A stretch of 64,000 nt of DNA from a virus, in IMG/VR virus record IMGVR_UViG_3300042562_001598, positions 89,149 to 153,148 of that record; one strand, written 5' to 3'. Below, one piece after another: positions 8,230-55,400 of the stretch (its first letter is position 1; the number at the start of each line of letters is the position of its first letter). Under the pieces are notes generated by a model. It searched no databases. It was not told the origin of the DNA and saw nothing but the letters and a program-made list of their open reading frames with translations. A program made the position numbers and the translations under genes.

Positions 8230-9957
8230 ATGGAAGAACTTTATAAATATATAATTGAAACTTATCATGTTACAGAATATGATGATACAACTCCCGTCCA
8301 AAGGGAGATATCTGACGACCCATTTGAGGATAATGGTCGGTATTATGATATGGAAGGACTTGAGTATGTAATCAAAGGAAACTATACAACAAAAGAAAAA
8401 TTTGAAGAAAACCTTAAAAACAAATTAGCTGTAGTTGAAATAAAAAGAAAAAGTGTTTACGTAACTAAAACTGAAGATAAAATTAGTTTTAAACTTTTCA
8501 CATATAGTAGAAGACGACGACTAAATGGTCGGGGTTTTAAAAGTGATAATAGTGTTAGGTTTGTAACTTTTAATGTTAAGACTAATTCACTATATTCTGG
8601 ACATATGACGAATTACACATCCAAAAAAAAGGTTAATAAAAGAATTCGTAGAAACAACTTTTGGGAAAGTCCTTTAAACTTGATAAAACATTTAATGAAC
8701 ACAATGTTTTATGGGAGTTTAAGTAATAAAAAACTTAAGGAAAAAATGACCGAAAAACACGAGGTTATCGGAATATCAATGAATATTTTTTTAAGTAATA
8801 TCCCAGGTGTTGTTATTAACCCATCTTATAGTGATGATGAAAACTTATACAAAAGATATTTGGAATATTCAGGTATTAAGTATTCAAATAACTGGAAAGT
8901 GTTTATGGAGATTTTCCCCCAAGTTACAAAAAAAGATTTGGTAAAACACAAGTTAAAGTTTATTGATGCGTTTATGACTAAAAATGGTGTCAGTGGTGAA
9001 AAACTAAAAAGGGTTTTACATACGGTTAAAGAATGTAATATGGAGTCATTACATTATGCTTATCGTTTATTGGGGGAGAAATTTGTGAATTCCCAAAGTG
9101 ATGACTTTATGAAACAGGTTATTGAGACCTCGGTGTTTAAATACTACTATATGCCGGAGTTTGCATTTAAGAATGATAAAGAGAAAAGAAATGTTGTTGA
9201 GGTTATGAAGTTAGTTATGATGAAACATATAACATCTAACACTTTCAACGACCATATAAATATGATAACCCAAATAAGATTATTTGAGGATTTTACTTGG
9301 AAGTCGAAAACTTATGATGAGTTTAATAATGAACATTATGATTTGACCAATAAGGTTAGTCATTATACTCAAGGGGATTTCACTAGAAAATATGATGAAA
9401 AATTTGTAAATACTATTGAGAAACCTATTGTGTTAGATTACATTTATTATCCAGTTGTATTAAAAACATCTATTGACTATAATTCGGAGTCGGTGACGCA
9501 ATCAAATTGTGTTAAGACTTATATTAAAAGAGAGGAGTCAATAATCATTTCACTTAGGAGAGATGAAATCACTGGTGAAAGAGTTACCATTGAATATATT
9601 GTAGGTCATAATGGTGAAAAAGTCTTTGACATTGTAAGAATCCAGACATTAGGTAGATTTAATCAAGGTATTGATGAAGTTTGGCATAATGTTGTGGCTA
9701 AATTAGATGATAGAATTAATGATTATTTATTACATAATGAGTTTACTTTACCGGTTATGAATGTTGTTGTAGGTGGTAGAGAATTTGATACTGAATGTGA
9801 GGTTACTGATAATATTAAAATGAAACATTATATGGACCAAAGTAATAGAACCGATTTTGGTTATCAACTAAAATGGGATAAAGATTTAAGTAGGTTAAAA
9901 GATAATGTAAATACTGATGACCAAGAAGAAACTCACGACTGGATTGATTTTTTTTAA
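8230..9957 (+). CDS. hypothetical protein (575 aa)
   Basis: long uninterrupted ORF; no recognisable motifs. Confidence 0.5.
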   Translation: MEELYKYIIETYHVTEYDDTTPVQREISDDPFEDNGRYYDMEGLEYVIKGNYTTKEKFEENLKNKLAVVEIKRKSVYVTKTEDKISFKLFTYSRRRRLNGRGFKSDNSVRFVTFNVKTNSLYSGHMTNYTSKKKVNKRIRRNNFWESPLNLIKHLMNTMFYGSLSNKKLKEKMTEKHEVIGISMNIFLSNIPGVVINPSYSDDENLYKRYLEYSGIKYSNNWKVFMEIFPQVTKKDLVKHKLKFIDAFMTKNGVSGEKLKRVLHTVKECNMESLHYAYRLLGEKFVNSQSDDFMKQVIETSVFKYYYMPEFAFKNDKEKRNVVEVMKLVMMKHITSNTFNDHINMITQIRLFEDFTWKSKTYDEFNNEHYDLTNKVSHYTQGDFTRKYDEKFVNTIEKPIVLDYIYYPVVLKTSIDYNSESVTQSNCVKTYIKREESIIISLRRDEITGERVTIEYIVGHNGEKVFDIVRIQTLGRFNQGIDEVWHNVVAKLDDRINDYLLHNEFTLPVMNVVVGGREFDTECEVTDNIKMKHYMDQSNRTDFGYQLKWDKDLSRLKDNVNTDDQEETHDWIDFF

Positions 9958-9960
9958 GAT

Positions 9961-10278
9961 ATGGAAGAGATAAAGATAAGAAAACATTGTGTAAAATTAT
10001 TTAAGGAACGATATGGTTCCTATCCTTCTATTGTTAATACTTATAACTCATTAAGTGGGGAAGTTATTAATAAATTAATTGACAAATCACACCTGTTATG
10101 GTATAATGATTATGTTGATTTAGATGGGGGTATAAATAATATTGAAAAATTAGTTGAATATGATTCAACAGGTATATTTATTTATATTAAGAATGGTAAT
10201 GTTCTATTCTTAACAACAATAAACAAAAAAAACATTGTAGATTTTACGCTACATAATTTAATTAAAAAAAGTAAATAA
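9961..10278 (+). CDS. hypothetical protein
   Basis: 105-aa ORF tightly packed between neighbours. Confidence 0.4.
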   Translation: MEEIKIRKHCVKLFKERYGSYPSIVNTYNSLSGEVINKLIDKSHLLWYNDYVDLDGGINNIEKLVEYDSTGIFIYIKNGNVLFLTTINKKNIVDFTLHNLIKKSK

Positions 10279-27743: not shown

Positions 27744-28718
27744 ATGGGTAATAAAACATTAAAGGTGGTTAGTTTATTTTCAGGGTACGGAACACAAGAA
27801 TTGGCTCTGAAATATCTTGGGGTTAACTATGAGAATATTGCTAATTGTGATATCTTAAAATCGGCTAATGAAGCTTACGATAGTTTACATACTACAGAGT
27901 GTGGTAACTTGGGGGATGTGTCAAAGATTGATGAAACACAATTCCCGGATTGTGATTTCTTAACATATTCATTCCCATGTCAGGATATCTCAATCTCTGG
28001 TGTTCAGAAAGGTATTAAAAAAGGAACTAGGTCAGGTTTATTATTTGAGGTTGAACGAATCGTTGAATACAATAAACCAAAGTATTTGTTAATGGAGAAT
28101 GTTAAGAACTTGGTATCAAAAAACCATATTGAAGCGTTTTCTGAATACATTCGTAATTTGGAAGAATTGGGTTATGGAAATCACTGGATGATATTAAACG
28201 GAGCTGATTATGGTTGCCCCCAAAATAGAGAAAGGGTTTTTATGTTTTCTGTATTGGGTGAGAGTAATGAGGTTGTTCGTGAAAAAATGTTGGGGGTCTT
28301 GAACCTTAAGGAAGAAAGGGTTCCGATGAAATGTTATATTGAGGATGATGCTGATGAAAAGTTATTTATCAATCCCCCATTTGAGTGGAATGATTCCAAG
28401 GTAAAGTCGGTGTGTAAATTAATTGCTAGAAGAAGTGATATTAAGTATGACCAGACCCGTAGGATATATTCAACTGAAGCTTGTTCTCCTTGTTTAACAA
28501 CATCGGGTTCACCTCAGATAATGTTGGAGGATAAGAGAATAAGAACATTAACTGCAAGGGAAGGTTATCGTTTTATGGGTGTTAAAGATGAGGATATTGA
28601 TAAGTTATTGACAACCAAATTATCAACCAATCAACATATTGCTTTGGCTGGTAACTCAATATGTGTTCCGGTTATGAGTGCAATATTCCAACAATTCTTT
28701 GAGGAATATCAAAACTAA
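27744..28718 (+). CDS. DNA (cytosine-5)-methyltransferase (Dcm-like)
   Basis: motif I VVSLFSGYGTQ, motif IV FPCQDIS, motif VI LLMENVKNLV. Confidence 0.85.
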   Translation: MGNKTLKVVSLFSGYGTQELALKYLGVNYENIANCDILKSANEAYDSLHTTECGNLGDVSKIDETQFPDCDFLTYSFPCQDISISGVQKGIKKGTRSGLLFEVERIVEYNKPKYLLMENVKNLVSKNHIEAFSEYIRNLEELGYGNHWMILNGADYGCPQNRERVFMFSVLGESNEVVREKMLGVLNLKEERVPMKCYIEDDADEKLFINPPFEWNDSKVKSVCKLIARRSDIKYDQTRRIYSTEACSPCLTTSGSPQIMLEDKRIRTLTAREGYRFMGVKDEDIDKLLTTKLSTNQHIALAGNSICVPVMSAIFQQFFEEYQN

Positions 28719-40046: not shown

Positions 40047-41975
40047 ATGGAAAAGATAAATGTATTGAGTTTGTTTGATGGGATGAGTTGTGGTCAGATT
40101 GCTCTGAATAGAGCTGGTATTGAGTATGGTAATTATTATGCTTCTGAAATTGATAAACACGCAATTAAAGAAACCATGGCGAACTATCCCAATACAATCC
40201 AGGTTGGTGATGTTACAAAGATTACAGCGTCAGATTTACCAAAGATAGACTTATTAATTGGTGGTAGTCCATGTTTTACCGCGGGTAATTTAGTGATGAC
40301 TAATGATGGTTATAAACCAATAGAAGATATTGTTGTTGGTGATATGGTATTGACTCATAAAAATAGGTATAAAAAAGTTTTAAGAATTGGTGGTGAAATT
40401 AAAGAGACGATACGAGTAAAATCCCAAGGGTCAAGTATGATAGAAACAACTAGAAACCATCCATTTTATTGTTTTGAGAGTAATGGTGAGAATTCTGACT
40501 TTTGTTGGAAAAATATTGGTGATTTTAATAAAAAAGATAAAGTTGTATCTATAAATTGGGGTGTAAATATTGATTTTGAGAACTTTTCAAATATTGATTT
40601 ATACATATTAGGTCGTTTTTTAGCGGATGGTTGTTGTTACAAAACAAAAAGAAAAGATAGAGATAATTCTTACATCTATAAGTTTAAAATAAGTGTTGGG
40701 AAACATGAAATAGATGACTTTAAGAGTAAAGTTGATGATAGATTTACCTATATTGAAGAAAAAACTGTATATAATGCTTTTATATATAAAAAAGAATGGG
40801 TTGAGATAGGTGAAAAATTTGGCCACTTAGCTCATAATAAATTTATACCTAATTTCATATTAGATTTACCTATTGATAGACTTAAAATTTTCATCAATGG
40901 ATATATGGATGGTGATGGTCATGTTAGAAAACAAGCTTCTAAAGTCAATGTATATAAAAGAAATACGACTGTTAGTGAAAAACTAGCTCTTACATTATCT
41001 TTAGCTATACAAAAATGTTACAATGGGGTGTCAATTAATTATACAAAAAGAGAAAATACTTGTGTTATTGAAGGTAGAGTTGTAAATCAAAAAGGGACTT
41101 ATGAAGTTTCATATACTGAAAATAAAACAAAATTTAGTAAGTATAAAATAATAAATGATTATACAATTTACAACCTGACTAAAAGTGTTTCATTTGTTGA
41201 AACTGGAACTAATCCTGTTTATAATATAGAGGTAGAAGAAGATAATTCATATGTGGTTAATAATCTAATTGTTCATAATTGCCAAGGATTTTCTTTTAGT
41301 GGAAAACAATTAAACTTTGAGGACCCAAGAAGTAAATTGTTCTTTGAGTTTGTTAGACTATTAAAGGAGTGTAATCCGAAATACTTTTTACTTGAGAATG
41401 TTGTAATGAAAAAAGAATATGAACAGGTAATAACTGATTACTTGGGAGTAGAACCCATTCAGATTAATTCCACTTTGGTGGCAGCCCAAAATCGCGTGAG
41501 ATTGTATTGGACCAATATACCAAATGTTCAACAACCTGAAGATAGAAACATAAGGTTAATTGATATTTTAGAAGATGATGTAATGATTGGCGATACAATT
41601 GTTAGAAAGGAGAACCTGAACAAAGGAACTATACTTGGTAGGAGACTAAATAACGAGGGTAAGAGAGACGATTACAATAAAAGTGTGCCAATAGTTCAGT
41701 GCCTTGAGATAAGAGCGTCAAATAGAGAAAAAAGTAATTGTATAACAACCGTGGCCAAAGATAATGTTTTATCTACATTACCAATAGGTCGGCATGTTGA
41801 TGCGTTTAATAAGAAATTACCTTTTAGATATTATACGACTACAGAATATAGTAGATTACAGACTGTTCCAGATGATTATTTCAAGGTTTCAAGTGATAAT
41901 CAGATAAGAAAAATGATTGGTAATGGGTGGACTGTTGATGTTATTGCTCACATATTCAATAATATACAACTATAA
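40047..41975 (+). CDS. DNA (cytosine-5)-methyltransferase interrupted by an intein
   Basis: N-extein ...LIGGSP / intein CFTAGNLV...VHN / C-extein CQGFSFSGKQ; spliced product restores GGSPCQ motif IV. Confidence 0.8.
   Translation: MEKINVLSLFDGMSCGQIALNRAGIEYGNYYASEIDKHAIKETMANYPNTIQVGDVTKITASDLPKIDLLIGGSPCFTAGNLVMTNDGYKPIEDIVVGDMVLTHKNRYKKVLRIGGEIKETIRVKSQGSSMIETTRNHPFYCFESNGENSDFCWKNIGDFNKKDKVVSINWGVNIDFENFSNIDLYILGRFLADGCCYKTKRKDRDNSYIYKFKISVGKHEIDDFKSKVDDRFTYIEEKTVYNAFIYKKEWVEIGEKFGHLAHNKFIPNFILDLPIDRLKIFINGYMDGDGHVRKQASKVNVYKRNTTVSEKLALTLSLAIQKCYNGVSINYTKRENTCVIEGRVVNQKGTYEVSYTENKTKFSKYKIINDYTIYNLTKSVSFVETGTNPVYNIEVEEDNSYVVNNLIVHNCQGFSFSGKQLNFEDPRSKLFFEFVRLLKECNPKYFLLENVVMKKEYEQVITDYLGVEPIQINSTLVAAQNRVRLYWTNIPNVQQPEDRNIRLIDILEDDVMIGDTIVRKENLNKGTILGRRLNNEGKRDDYNKSVPIVQCLEIRASNREKSNCITTVAKDNVLSTLPIGRHVDAFNKKLPFRYYTTTEYSRLQTVPDDYFKVSSDNQIRKMIGNGWTVDVIAHIFNNIQL
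40272..41279 (+). mobile_element. intein (336 aa) with LAGLIDADG homing-endonuclease domain
   Basis: block A CFTAGNLVMTNDG, block B TTRNHPFY (TxxH), LAGLIDADG-like LYILGRFLADGCCY and FINGYMDGDGHV, terminal HN followed by +1 Cys. Confidence 0.7.
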
Positions 41976-44623: not shown

Positions 44624-44827
44624 ATGGAAAAAAAGATAACATTAGGGAAGGCAATCAAAATTAAGGTTAAAGATTCGGTATCATCTTATGTGTGGAATAG
44701 GTTATATGAAAAATTAGATAAGTTAGTAAGTAATAAAATATATAATTCAACCATTCATTTACAAAAAGAATCGGAGGTTTATGAGATGTATTACGCAATA
44801 TGGTTGTCAATTAGGCGTAAATTATGA
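44624..44827 (+). CDS. array unit 1 (degenerate; no SV repeats)
   Basis: MEKKITLGKAIKIKVKDSVSS... leader-like N-terminus. Confidence 0.4.
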   Translation: MEKKITLGKAIKIKVKDSVSSYVWNRLYEKLDKLVSNKIYNSTIHLQKESEVYEMYYAIWLSIRRKL

Positions 44828-45063
44828 AAACAAAGATAGAATTAGGCAAATCGGTTATGAATGAAGTAAGGAGTTCAGTTAGGCGTTCAGTAAATATTTT
44901 AGTGAGTAATTCAGTGTGTGGTTCAGTGAGTAGTTCAGTGGATAGTTCAGTGAGGAGTATAGTGTGTGGTTCAGTAAATATTTCAGTGTATAATTCAGTA
45001 TATGATTCAGTGGATAGTTCAGTGTGGAGTTCAGTATCTGATTCAATAAATAATAATATATGA
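44824..45063 (+). CDS. SV-repeat minigene
   Basis: MKTKIELGKSVMNEVRSSVRRSVNILVSNSVCGSVSSSVDSSV... Confidence 0.55.
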   Translation: MKTKIELGKSVMNEVRSSVRRSVNILVSNSVCGSVSSSVDSSVRSIVCGSVNISVYNSVYDSVDSSVWSSVSDSINNNI

Positions 45064-45224
45064 AAACAAAGTTAGTCTTGGGGAAACCAGTTAATGGTAA
45101 TGTGGTTGAATCAGTTAAGAATTCGGTGTGGATTTTAACACATATTTCATTGTATCGTTCAGTGAATAGTTCAGTATACAATTCAGTGTTTAATTCGGTG
45201 TGGCGTCCAAGTTTTATATTATGA
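45060..45224 (+). CDS. SV-repeat minigene (54 aa, not in track; approx coords)
   Basis: MKTKLVLGKPVNGNVVESVKNSVW...; ATGA overlaps both sides. Confidence 0.45.
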   Translation: MKTKLVLGKPVNGNVVESVKNSVWILTHISLYRSVNSSVYNSVFNSVWRPSFIL

Positions 45225-45388
45225 AAACAAAGATTAAATTGGGGGAATCGGTTAGGGTGTTACTGTATAAGTCAATAAGGAGTTCAGTTGATGTTTCACT
45301 GATGTTTACAGCGTATGGTTCAGTGCATAAGTCAGTGTGGACTTCAGTTAGGACTTCAGTTCATAATCCAACAAATATTAGCATATGA
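45221..45388 (+). CDS. SV-repeat minigene (listed ORF 45200-45388 has internal start MKTKIKLGESV)
   Basis: ATGA overlap with previous unit. Confidence 0.5.
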   Translation: MKTKIKLGESVRVLLYKSIRSSVDVSLMFTAYGSVHKSVWTSVRTSVHNPTNISI

Positions 45389-45594
45389 AAACAAAGATAG
45401 ACCTGGGGGAATCGGTTAAGGGTAAAGTTAGGAGTTCAGTGAGGGATTCAGTGAGACATTCAATATCCCCTTCAATGTACAATTCAGTTAAAAGTGTTCT
45501 GCATAGTGAAATATTTTCATCACTTGAGAATTCTATTAGGCATTCAGTTAGTAATTCAATCTATTGGACTATAGATAACTTCAATAAACTTTAG
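45385..45594 (+). CDS. SV-repeat minigene
   Basis: MKTKIDLGESVKGKVRSSVRDSV... Confidence 0.55.
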   Translation: MKTKIDLGESVKGKVRSSVRDSVRHSISPSMYNSVKSVLHSEIFSSLENSIRHSVSNSIYWTIDNFNKL

Positions 45595-45597
45595 ATT

Positions 45598-45777
45598 ATG
45601 AAAACAAAGGTAGACCTGGGGAAATCAATTAAGGATAAAGTGTATGATTCAGTACTTAGTTCAGTGAGGAGTTCAGTGAATAGTTCAGTGTATGGTTCAG
45701 TTAGTAGTTCAGTGTATGATTCAGTGGGGAGTTCAGTGTATAGTTCAGTTAGGAATTTAACAAACATTAGATTATGA
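45598..45777 (+). CDS. SV-repeat minigene (59 aa, approx)
   Basis: MKTKVDLGKSIKDKVYDSVLSSVRSSVNSSVYGSVSSSVYDSVGSSVYSSV. Confidence 0.5.
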   Translation: MKTKVDLGKSIKDKVYDSVLSSVRSSVNSSVYGSVSSSVYDSVGSSVYSSVRNLTNIRL

Positions 45778-46034
45778 AAACAAAGATTACATTGGGAGAA
45801 TCAGTTGAAGATAAGATTTTCCAAATAGTTACTGATGTGATTAGTAAAAAAAGTTATGACTTGTTAATCAGGGGAGTTTCATCAAATATGTTAAAGGGTG
45901 TTTCAGATGGGGTATATGATTACGCCTATAATTCAATATTACCTTCATTGAGTAGGGAAGTGTGGTTATTAGCGGTCACTAATTCAACAATAAAAAATTA
46001 TGAAAACAAAGATAGACCTGGGGAAATCGGTTAA
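45774..46034 (+). CDS. array unit lacking SV repeats (reads through into next unit leader)
   Basis: MKTKITLGESVEDKIFQIV...; no ATGA stop at its end. Confidence 0.4.
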   Translation: MKTKITLGESVEDKIFQIVTDVISKKSYDLLIRGVSSNMLKGVSDGVYDYAYNSILPSLSREVWLLAVTNSTIKNYENKDRPGEIG

Positions 46035-54575: not shown

Positions 54576-55400
54576 ATGAGAGATAATAAGAAAGGGGATA
54601 ATATAAATAATAATGTTATGACAATAGATTTAAGATTTGGTGATACGATAGAACAAATGAAATTGATATCTGATAAAAGTATTGACTTTATTTGTTGTGA
54701 TTTACCTTATGGTTCAACAAAAAACAATTGGGATATTATCATACCATTTGACCAACTTTGGGAACAATATAAGAGAATTATTAAAGATGATGGGGCTATC
54801 GCGTTATTTGGGACAGGTTTGTTTGCTTATAAGTTAGCGTTATCAAATGAGAAAATGTATAAGTATGAAATAATTTGGTCAAAATCTAAAAGTGGTAGTT
54901 CATTTACTGCAAAATATAGACCCGTTCAGAAACATGAAAACATTTTAATATTTGGGAAAGGTAAAGTGGTATATAATCCACAATTAGAACCGGGTGAACC
55001 ATACTATAGGAAACGGAAAGCTAATGATGGGGATAAACCAAATAATCATAAATTAGGTGTTGTATCTGAAAGTGAGACCAAGAATGATGGGTTTAGATAT
55101 CCGTCAACTATTCAATTTTTCCAACAAAAATGGAGAAGGCAAGACCAACTACATAGTACACAAAAACCTGTGGAACTTATAGAATGGTTAATAAAATCAT
55201 ATAGTAATGAAAGTGATACTATTTTGGATAATACATTTGGTAGTTGCACCGCGGGAATTGCTAGTATAAACACTAATAGGAATTTTATAGGAATTGAGAA
55301 TAACCAACATTATTTTGATGTTTCTATAGAGAGAATTAATAAAATATTACAATATAACGACCCGAACCATATGAAAGACATTATCTTAATTACTCAATAA
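54576..55400 (+). CDS. beta-class N6-adenine/N4-cytosine DNA methyltransferase (start probably 54618, MTIDLRFGD)
   Basis: motif IV CCDLPYGS (D/S-PPY-like), C-terminal motif I ILDNTFGSCTAGIAS (DxFxGSGT). Confidence 0.7.
   Translation: MRDNKKGDNINNNVMTIDLRFGDTIEQMKLISDKSIDFICCDLPYGSTKNNWDIIIPFDQLWEQYKRIIKDDGAIALFGTGLFAYKLALSNEKMYKYEIIWSKSKSGSSFTAKYRPVQKHENILIFGKGKVVYNPQLEPGEPYYRKRKANDGDKPNNHKLGVVSESETKNDGFRYPSTIQFFQQKWRRQDQLHSTQKPVELIEWLIKSYSNESDTILDNTFGSCTAGIASINTNRNFIGIENNQHYFDVSIERINKILQYNDPNHMKDIILITQ

Follow-up and report, generated by a model that had tools for sequence, protein, structure and literature searches.

What kind of element interrupts a cytosine methyltransferase gene exactly at the codon for its catalytic cysteine, and could such a gene still give rise to a working enzyme? 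The question is raised by one open reading frame (ORF) in the viral DNA analysed here, a stretch of 64,000 nucleotides (nt) covering positions 89,149 to 153,148 of IMG/VR virus record IMGVR_UViG_3300042562_001598, which we call the window and number from its first letter. Here we report that this ORF is a C5-cytosine methyltransferase (MTase) gene split by an intein, that the insertion lies between Pro75 and the motif-IV cysteine, and that the match to such an arrangement is far beyond chance. A preliminary description of the same DNA had put the element at 40272-41279, with a block A, a TTRNHPFY segment, two LAGLIDADG motifs, an end reading VVNNLIVHN and a host protein resuming at CQGFSFSGKQ, and all of these features are confirmed (Table 1).

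Considering the sequence together with a structural model, we regard it as very probable that the ORF encodes a DNMT3-like C5 MTase precursor, split by a canonical class-1 intein with a monomeric double-LAGLIDADG homing endonuclease, and that this intein splices and homes. That protein splicing and DNA cleavage actually take place is something we infer from sequence.

A methyltransferase split in motif IV

In C5 MTases, the cysteine of the motif IV Pro-Cys pair is the nucleophile that attacks C6 of cytosine. The Pfam DNA_methylase profile (PF00145) matches the ORF with an expect value (E) of 3.5e-35 in two stretches, the profile being divided between positions 70 and 71 and the C-terminal stretch (residues 412-641) corresponding to positions 71-323 of 324, and the NCBIfam dcm model (TIGR00675) matches at 5.5e-37. 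When residues 1-75 are joined to residues 412-642, the outcome is a protein of 306 residues with the predicted junction peptide ...LIGGSPCQGFSFSGK, in which motifs I (LFDGMSCG), IV (GGSP^CQ; here and below a caret marks an insertion point or splice junction), VI (ENV), VIII (QNRVR) and X (GNGWTV) follow one another in order and are contiguous only without the intein. Compared by sequence with entries in the PDB, the joined extein is closest to the catalytic domains of DNMT3A and DNMT3B (about 1e-25), followed by M.HaeIII and M.HhaI, and its ...IGGSPCQGFS overlays ...IGGSPCNDLS of DNMT3A. The extein can accordingly be classed, by its resemblances, as a DNMT3-like C5-cytosine MTase.

Because the Pro-Cys of motif IV carries the nucleophile of C5 MTases, Cys412 is at once the +1 residue of the intein and the catalytic residue of the host enzyme. 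This identity had been proposed at the outset, and it agrees with the domain searches, residue conservation, the structure model, the alignment with DNMT3A, M.HaeIII and M.HhaI, and the intein-free allele described next.

A natural intein-free allele

Searching with the joined extein retrieved a protein of 306 residues (P0064) that is 97% identical over 100% of the query and lacks the intein. Relative to the window, its DNA (locus L015) shows one exact indel of 1008 nt, for which the aligner reported a gap at 40275-41282; this placement is equivalent to 40272-41279, since the intein and the C-extein both open with TG(T/C). Mismatches with L015 number 5 in the 225 nt of the N-extein and 3 in the 48 nt around the junction, all three of the latter synonymous, and the empty homing site of L015 reads GACTTATTAATTGGTGGTAGTCCA^TGTCAGGGATTTTCTTTTAGTGGG. 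Nucleotides 40272-41279 are a discrete, precisely bounded mobile insertion, and the exact indel relative to L015 is the strongest single evidence for this. A Hint domain is absent from all of the 120 best-scoring ortholog clusters (75-97% identity), and no second empty homing site was found in the window with a 26-mer allowing up to three mismatches. These comparisons support both the proposed architecture and a recent mobility of the intein.

The preliminary description had regarded the neighbouring MTase copies as the intein-free alleles, a role that belongs instead to L015/P0064. The three MTase domains encoded immediately upstream are 52-55% identical to the joined extein, have other variable regions and a diverged 3' half-site, and are best described as paralogs. 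They align to the extein with no gap at the junction, and the comparison with the copy at 39166-40044, which had been put forward as a check, reconstitutes a contiguous MTase.

The protein of 642 residues is present in identical form on seven contigs from several freshwater samples, and an assembly chimera or artefact was rejected on that basis. We likewise rejected a bacterial intein-like (BIL) domain, as the element has a terminal His-Asn, a +1 cysteine and an exact empty allele. The G+C fraction inside the intein (0.24-0.28 over window positions 40500-41250) is below that of the flanking extein (0.33-0.35).

Splicing and nuclease features of the intein

Profile searches of the kind recommended in the preliminary description recover the intein within the ORF, with Pfam Hint_2 above its cutoff at 1.4e-8, Hom_end and Hom_end_hint near theirs, and NCBIfam intein_Cterm (TIGR01443) at 22.5 bits for a cutoff of 15.6. 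The intein_Nterm model also matched, and there were local matches to NCBIfam models of intein-containing GyrA, DnaB, PolII and RecA proteins.

Residue conservation was counted over 39 full-length relatives of the intein. Cys1, the block B threonine and histidine, the aspartate and glycine of LAGLIDADG motif 2 and the block F aspartate are each present in all 39; in motif 1 the glycine is likewise invariant and the aspartate is found in 37. The terminal asparagine is conserved in 38 relatives and the penultimate histidine in 26, the rest having tyrosine or phenylalanine at that position. The window intein retains every conserved splicing and nuclease residue as well as the canonical penultimate histidine, its 3' end reading ...VYNIEVEEDNSYVVNNLIVHN^C412, that is, His-Asn and then the +1 cysteine.

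An AlphaFold2 model of the intein, built from a 33-sequence alignment, has a mean predicted local distance difference test score of 91.5 and a predicted template modelling (TM) score of 0.90. The top PDB matches of this model in Foldseek are homing-endonuclease inteins, namely TliVMA (7qsu; E 3e-16, TM 0.70), PI-SceI, PhoVMA, PI-PfuI and PI-PkoII; Prp8 inteins are also matched, through the Hint fold, and the free-standing LAGLIDADG enzymes I-DmoI, I-OnuI variants and E-DreI follow at about 1e-5. The nuclease part is predicted to adopt the pseudo-dimeric alpha-beta-beta-alpha-beta-beta-alpha LAGLIDADG fold, and by sequence it aligns to PI-PkoII (2cw7) over both motifs (E 1.5e-4). Relative to the 64%-identical intein of L005, the ratio of nonsynonymous to synonymous substitution rates (dN/dS) is 0.20 for the intein as a whole and 0.16 for its nuclease domain, both of them rough values, with dS saturated (>1). 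In sequence and model alike, the intein looks intact.

Proposed mechanism and alternative explanations

After translation, Cys76 (Cys1 of the intein) would undergo an N-S acyl shift and the N-extein would be transferred, by trans-thioesterification, to Cys412 at the +1 position. Asn411 would cyclise with the assistance of His410, and an S-N shift would join ...GGSP to CQGFS..., giving an active MTase of 306 residues with Cys412 as its nucleophile, plus a free intein of 336 residues. The free intein would probably cut an intein-less copy of the gene at a site of about 20-40 bp spanning GGTGGTAGTCCA^TG(T/C)CA(A/G)GGATTTTC, and during co-infection, repair from the intein-bearing copy would insert the intein, completing the homing reaction.

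Several points weigh against this account. The Pfam Intein_splicing and LAGLIDADG_3 profiles both stay just under threshold, at 29.6 bits for a gathering cutoff of 35.8 and, with the full ORF, at 22.0 for a cutoff of 22.5, and saturation of dS (>1) leaves the dN/dS figures for the intein rough. Endonuclease activity could have been lost despite the persistence of its motifs. Scans of 20 large window ORFs with PHROGs and Pfam found no phage structural gene, which counts against a phage origin, and we found in the searchable literature no experimental splicing or cleavage for any C5-MTase intein, this one included.

A real if minor possibility is that splicing is intact and the homing endonuclease dead, leaving the intein as a passenger that has gone to fixation, is inherited vertically and, with its homing cycle over, no longer moves. 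The lack of variation in the protein across its seven contigs would fit such a passenger, decayed relatives do exist (e.g., the 5'-truncated remnant in T4-like contig L008, described below), and motif conservation alone is no proof of nuclease activity. On the other hand, both catalytic aspartates are retained, the nuclease fold is complete in the model, dN/dS in the nuclease domain is low (0.16, roughly estimated), alleles whose exteins are 97% identical coexist with and without the intein, and a 72%-identical intein resides in an MTase with a different target-recognition region. The intein is, moreover, absent from the 120 best-scoring ortholog clusters, and the pattern therefore looks like that of an invading element and not of a fixed one.

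It is very unlikely that the Hint/LAGLIDADG insertion fails to splice, with the MTase a pseudogene or the protein re-purposed as a nuclease. Such MTase genes can decay, since the gene with the 64%-identical relative (L005) is broken further by an HNH-ORF insertion and the copy in the Mannheimia phage has a frameshift immediately after the intein. In the window, however, the frame is uninterrupted from end to end, Cys1, T..H, the block F aspartate, His-Asn and the +1 cysteine are all in place, the downstream MTase motifs are all intact, and the extein is 97% identical to that of an uninterrupted allele.

Equally hard to credit is co-option of the intein to switch the MTase on after translation, as by a redox-sensitive disulfide trap between Cys1 and Cys+1 that delays MTase activation during infection: with motif IV split the precursor is necessarily inactive and MTase activity therefore dependent on splicing, cysteines do occupy both positions, and published accounts document conditional splicing for other inteins, such as those of RadA and DnaB, but the sequence shows no feature particular to regulation, almost every ortholog works with no intein, and the other four C5 MTase domains in the window are intein-free.

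Tandem paralogs and gene conversion

The 5' half-site of the homing site is nearly the same in the three upstream MTase domains (20 of 21 nt match), and the 3' half-site of these paralogs diverges from the seventh nucleotide past the insertion point (CQSFSNAG vs CQGFSFSG). Comparison of the copy at 39166-40044 with the reconstituted homing site gives 11 mismatches in 48 nt, all but two of them on the 3' side. Since the variable (target-recognition) regions differ between the upstream paralogs and the intein-bearing MTase, the tandem enzymes probably target different sequences. In a related 393-kb contig (L017), four MTases are arranged as separate tandem genes, compared with the fused gene at 37475-39163 in the window.

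Two intein-free orthologs (L021 242-1159, P0067; L022 5001-5918, P0069) contain a paralog-like patch of approximately 185-240 nt over the homing site, which starts no more than 15 nt upstream of the insertion point and extends downstream. Outside this patch, L021 is 98-100% identical to the window gene and L022 mostly 70-90%, and in L022 it is the M1b paralog that carries a segment of the homing-site type instead. The window gene itself has a mini-patch of 13 mismatches relative to L015 at 41471-41504. This patchwork indicates gene conversion among the tandem MTase copies over the homing site; to name the nuclease as its trigger is speculation. One scenario, which we judge unlikely, is that a cut empty allele is sometimes repaired from a neighbouring paralog and that the resulting patch is immune to further homing. 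If true, paralog arrays would shelter genes from the intein and shift its target between genes.

Table 1. Positions of the split methyltransferase, its intein and the upstream paralogs in the window
Feature	Position	Strand	Description
Upstream paralog	37475-39163	+	562-residue ORF that fuses two complete C5 MTase domains; intein-free
Upstream paralog	39166-40044	+	292-residue C5 MTase; intein-free
MTase precursor ORF	40047-41975	+	642 residues; frame intact over all 642 codons
N-extein	40047-40271	+	residues 1-75, from motif I LFDGMSCG to the end of motif IV ...KIDLLIGGSP
Intein	40272-41279	+	class-1, 336 residues (76-411), CFTAGNLVMTNDG ... NNLIVHN; embedded double-motif LAGLIDADG homing endonuclease
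Block A, CFTAGNLVMTNDG	40272-40310	+	Cys1 (40272-40274) is Cys76 of the ORF, predicted first splicing nucleophile
Block B, TTRNHPFY	40446-40469	+	residues 134-141; T..H is Thr135/His138
LAGLIDADG motif 1, LYILGRFLADGCC	40599-40637	+	residues 185-197; LGRFLAD194G, catalytic Asp194
LAGLIDADG motif 2, FINGYMDGDGHV	40890-40925	+	residues 282-293; GYMDGD290G, catalytic Asp290
Blocks F and G, VYNIEVEEDNSYVV NNLIVHN	41217-41279	+	penultimate His410, terminal Asn411
C-extein	41280-41975	+	residues 412-642 plus stop; begins CQGFSFSGKQ
Cys412	41280-41282	+	+1 splicing nucleophile and MTase catalytic cysteine
C-extein motifs	ENV 41394-41402; QNRVR from 41487; GNGWTV 41919-41936	+	

Genome context

In all, the window has six or more DNA methyltransferase domains. 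These include a fifth C5 MTase at 27744-28718, with the motif IV sequence FPCQDIS and no relationship to the tandem array, as well as an N6_N4 methyltransferase at 54576-55400; the set fits an anti-restriction arsenal. The host genome is most likely that of a freshwater jumbo phage, large, gene-dense, AT-rich and mobile. The grounds for a phage origin are the gene density, the large number of methyltransferases and the related viral contigs, and since two of the seven contigs with the identical protein span 0.2-1 Mb, a very large viral genome is suggested. Megablast of the MTase cluster against the phage collection returned no match and so no close deposited relative, and an Rfam scan of the window returned nothing.

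Two further groups of ORFs stand out. At 44624-46034 there are five small tandem paralogous ORFs (62-86 residues) that start MKTKIxLG(E/K)SV and contain many SVxxSV repeats, and small ORFs like these also follow the MTase in L015. Adjacent ORFs at 35933-36706 and 36725-37405 have a common N-terminal sequence, M(N/K)LQENIxR(I/M)xxMM, and neither has a Pfam match.

The same insertion site in other genomes

A tblastn search of deposited phages with the intein returned 60 records, the best matches lying inside genes annotated as cytosine methyltransferases. The junctions read GGFP^CFPAGT...VVHN^CQAWSVAGKQ in Escherichia phage A4, FGFP^C...IVHN^CQDISVAGKQ in Lactobacillus phage Nyseid, GGSP^C...VVHN^CQDLSMAG in gp50 of Propionibacterium phage B22, GGTP^C...VVHN^CQS in Mannheimia phage 587AP2, which is frameshifted soon after, and GGTP^CFTAGH...VVHN^CQAFSIAG in Dmt of a P1 isolate. 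DNA of the P1-type intein is found in 5 phage records and in 133 PLSDB plasmids (E. coli, Salmonella and Shigella). The dmt gene of OP279344 (L004 3270-6311) encodes an unannotated intein of 341 residues at the catalytic cysteine of its C5 domain and is labelled only as a Dam-family methyltransferase.

The site recurs on a larger scale in a collection of 5.8 billion proteins, where the intein has matches in 62 clusters at E <=1e-10, approximately 50 of them carrying PF00145, and where nearly every cluster with a visible junction reads ...P^C...(H/Y/F)N^C(Q/T).... Same-site members align with the window intein over its full length at 26-72% identity (E 1e-132 to 1e-11); the closest are on two IMG/VR viral contigs (L023 and L024, 72%), followed by P0001/L005 (64%). 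Such relationships indicate that the window intein, no more than 72% identical to anything found, belongs to a widespread and under-annotated intein allele, and show a family that has spread across unrelated C5 MTases at the same site.

Some of these relatives have further irregularities. In L005 the MTase is also split after ...WQDIITEAL by approximately 720 nt (9408-10129) encoding a 213-residue HNH-type ORF (9451-10092), and continues at 10130 in a different frame; an Rfam scan of this HNH insertion gave no match, with no recognisable group I or group II intron. In L008 (7785-8996), a T4-like contig with Gp23 and Portal_T4 nearby, only intein positions ~140-336 and the C-extein remain. Having lost the N-extein along with blocks A and B, the L008 element is a decayed remnant of this same intein and MTase.

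Related inteins are also found in other enzymes. They precede the catalytic cysteine of thymidylate synthase in Aeromonas phage PS1 (L019 781-3039; SLTP^C...HN^CHFSF) and of the ThyA-family proteins P0042 (HN^CHILYQF) and P0052/P0056 (PP^C...HN^CLR), and in Lactococcus phage 949 NrdD (L020 1439-3688) the intein lies at the RV^CGY glycyl-radical motif. These ThyA-family and NrdD inteins are 28-34% identical to that of the window. C5 methyltransferases and ThyA have a common Pro-Cys nucleophile chemistry. In a neighbour-joining tree of 39 inteins the deep nodes have 6-25% bootstrap support, and no direction of extein switching among C5 MTases, the ThyA family and NrdD was obtained from it.

Comparison with known systems

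The preliminary description had supposed that an intein at this position was not well documented for phage enzymes of this type. As regards print this stands: full-text searches turned up no publication on an intein placed at the catalytic cysteine of a C5 MTase, the nearest being a 2025 preprint (10.1101/2025.01.02.630785) that lists C-5 methylase (IPR001525) among phage intein hosts and in whose searchable text the insertion point is undiscussed. As regards sequence data it does not, for the same site is common in phages, the 133 P1-like plasmids and the roughly 50 protein clusters. The insertion between proline and cysteine is, in other words, a common arrangement in sequence data that has barely been described in print. 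The Pro-Cys site of C5 MTases can thus be viewed as a widespread and essentially unannotated intein home in phages and phage-plasmids, P1-like ones included. Recognizing it should be useful for genome annotation, as such genes are now labelled plain methyltransferases or hypothetical proteins, and the site could supply new Cys1/Cys+1 inteins and LAGLIDADG nucleases. General understanding of inteins or of methyltransferases is unchanged by this case, which is a clean one of a host enzyme's catalytic cysteine serving as the +1 nucleophile, with a natural empty allele as control.

The closest parallels in deposited phages are in A4 (Asteriusvirus, USL83787.1), Nyseid (AUV59832.1), B22 and Mannheimia phage vB_MhS_587AP2, which have inteins at the same site (GGxP^C...HN^CQxxSxAGK) that, like the window's, are class-1 and double-LAGLIDADG. 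Theirs are 312-346 residues long, 29-37% identical to the window intein and found in other hosts and exteins, whereas the window has a DNMT3-like extein, in an AT-rich genome of freshwater origin; in none of these records is the intein annotated. The P1-like Dmt proteins (OP279344, RCS47, vB_EcoM-Ro157c2YLVW and PLSDB plasmids) have the same site and intein family, but their intein is 29% identical to the window's and interrupts a bifunctional C5 plus Dam extein in enterobacterial plasmid-prophages. P0001/L005 together with L023/L024 are of the same lineage as the window intein, with the same site, length (336-340 residues) and 3' flank CQGFS(F/S)(S/A)GK. The L024 MTase differs from the window's in its target-recognition region, and L005 differs in having its C-extein split by the HNH-ORF insertion.

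LAGLIDADG inteins that are patchily distributed, with recombination inside the gene, have been reported from N6_N4 methylases of actinophages (Kelley et al. 2016, PMC5050341; Gosselin et al. 2023, PMC9957025). As in the window, inteins of the LAGLIDADG type have here invaded orphan methyltransferases of phages, though the enzymes are N6_N4 and not C5. In Pacc40, the intein has 27% identity with that of the window and sits at HV^C...KN^CPLQF, which is not a catalytic cysteine.

Among inteins of known structure, PI-SceI (1vde), TliVMA (7qsu), PI-PfuI (1dq3) and PI-PkoII (2cw7) have a Hint domain interrupted by a double-LAGLIDADG nuclease, as the window intein is predicted to have. The resemblance is strong in fold (Foldseek E 3e-16 to 5e-9) at a sequence identity of 12-17%, and the window intein is the smaller, with 336 residues against 361-537. 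The exteins of these structurally characterised inteins (VMA ATPase, DNA polymerase and ribonucleotide reductase) are unrelated to the DNMT3-like methyltransferase that houses the intein described here.

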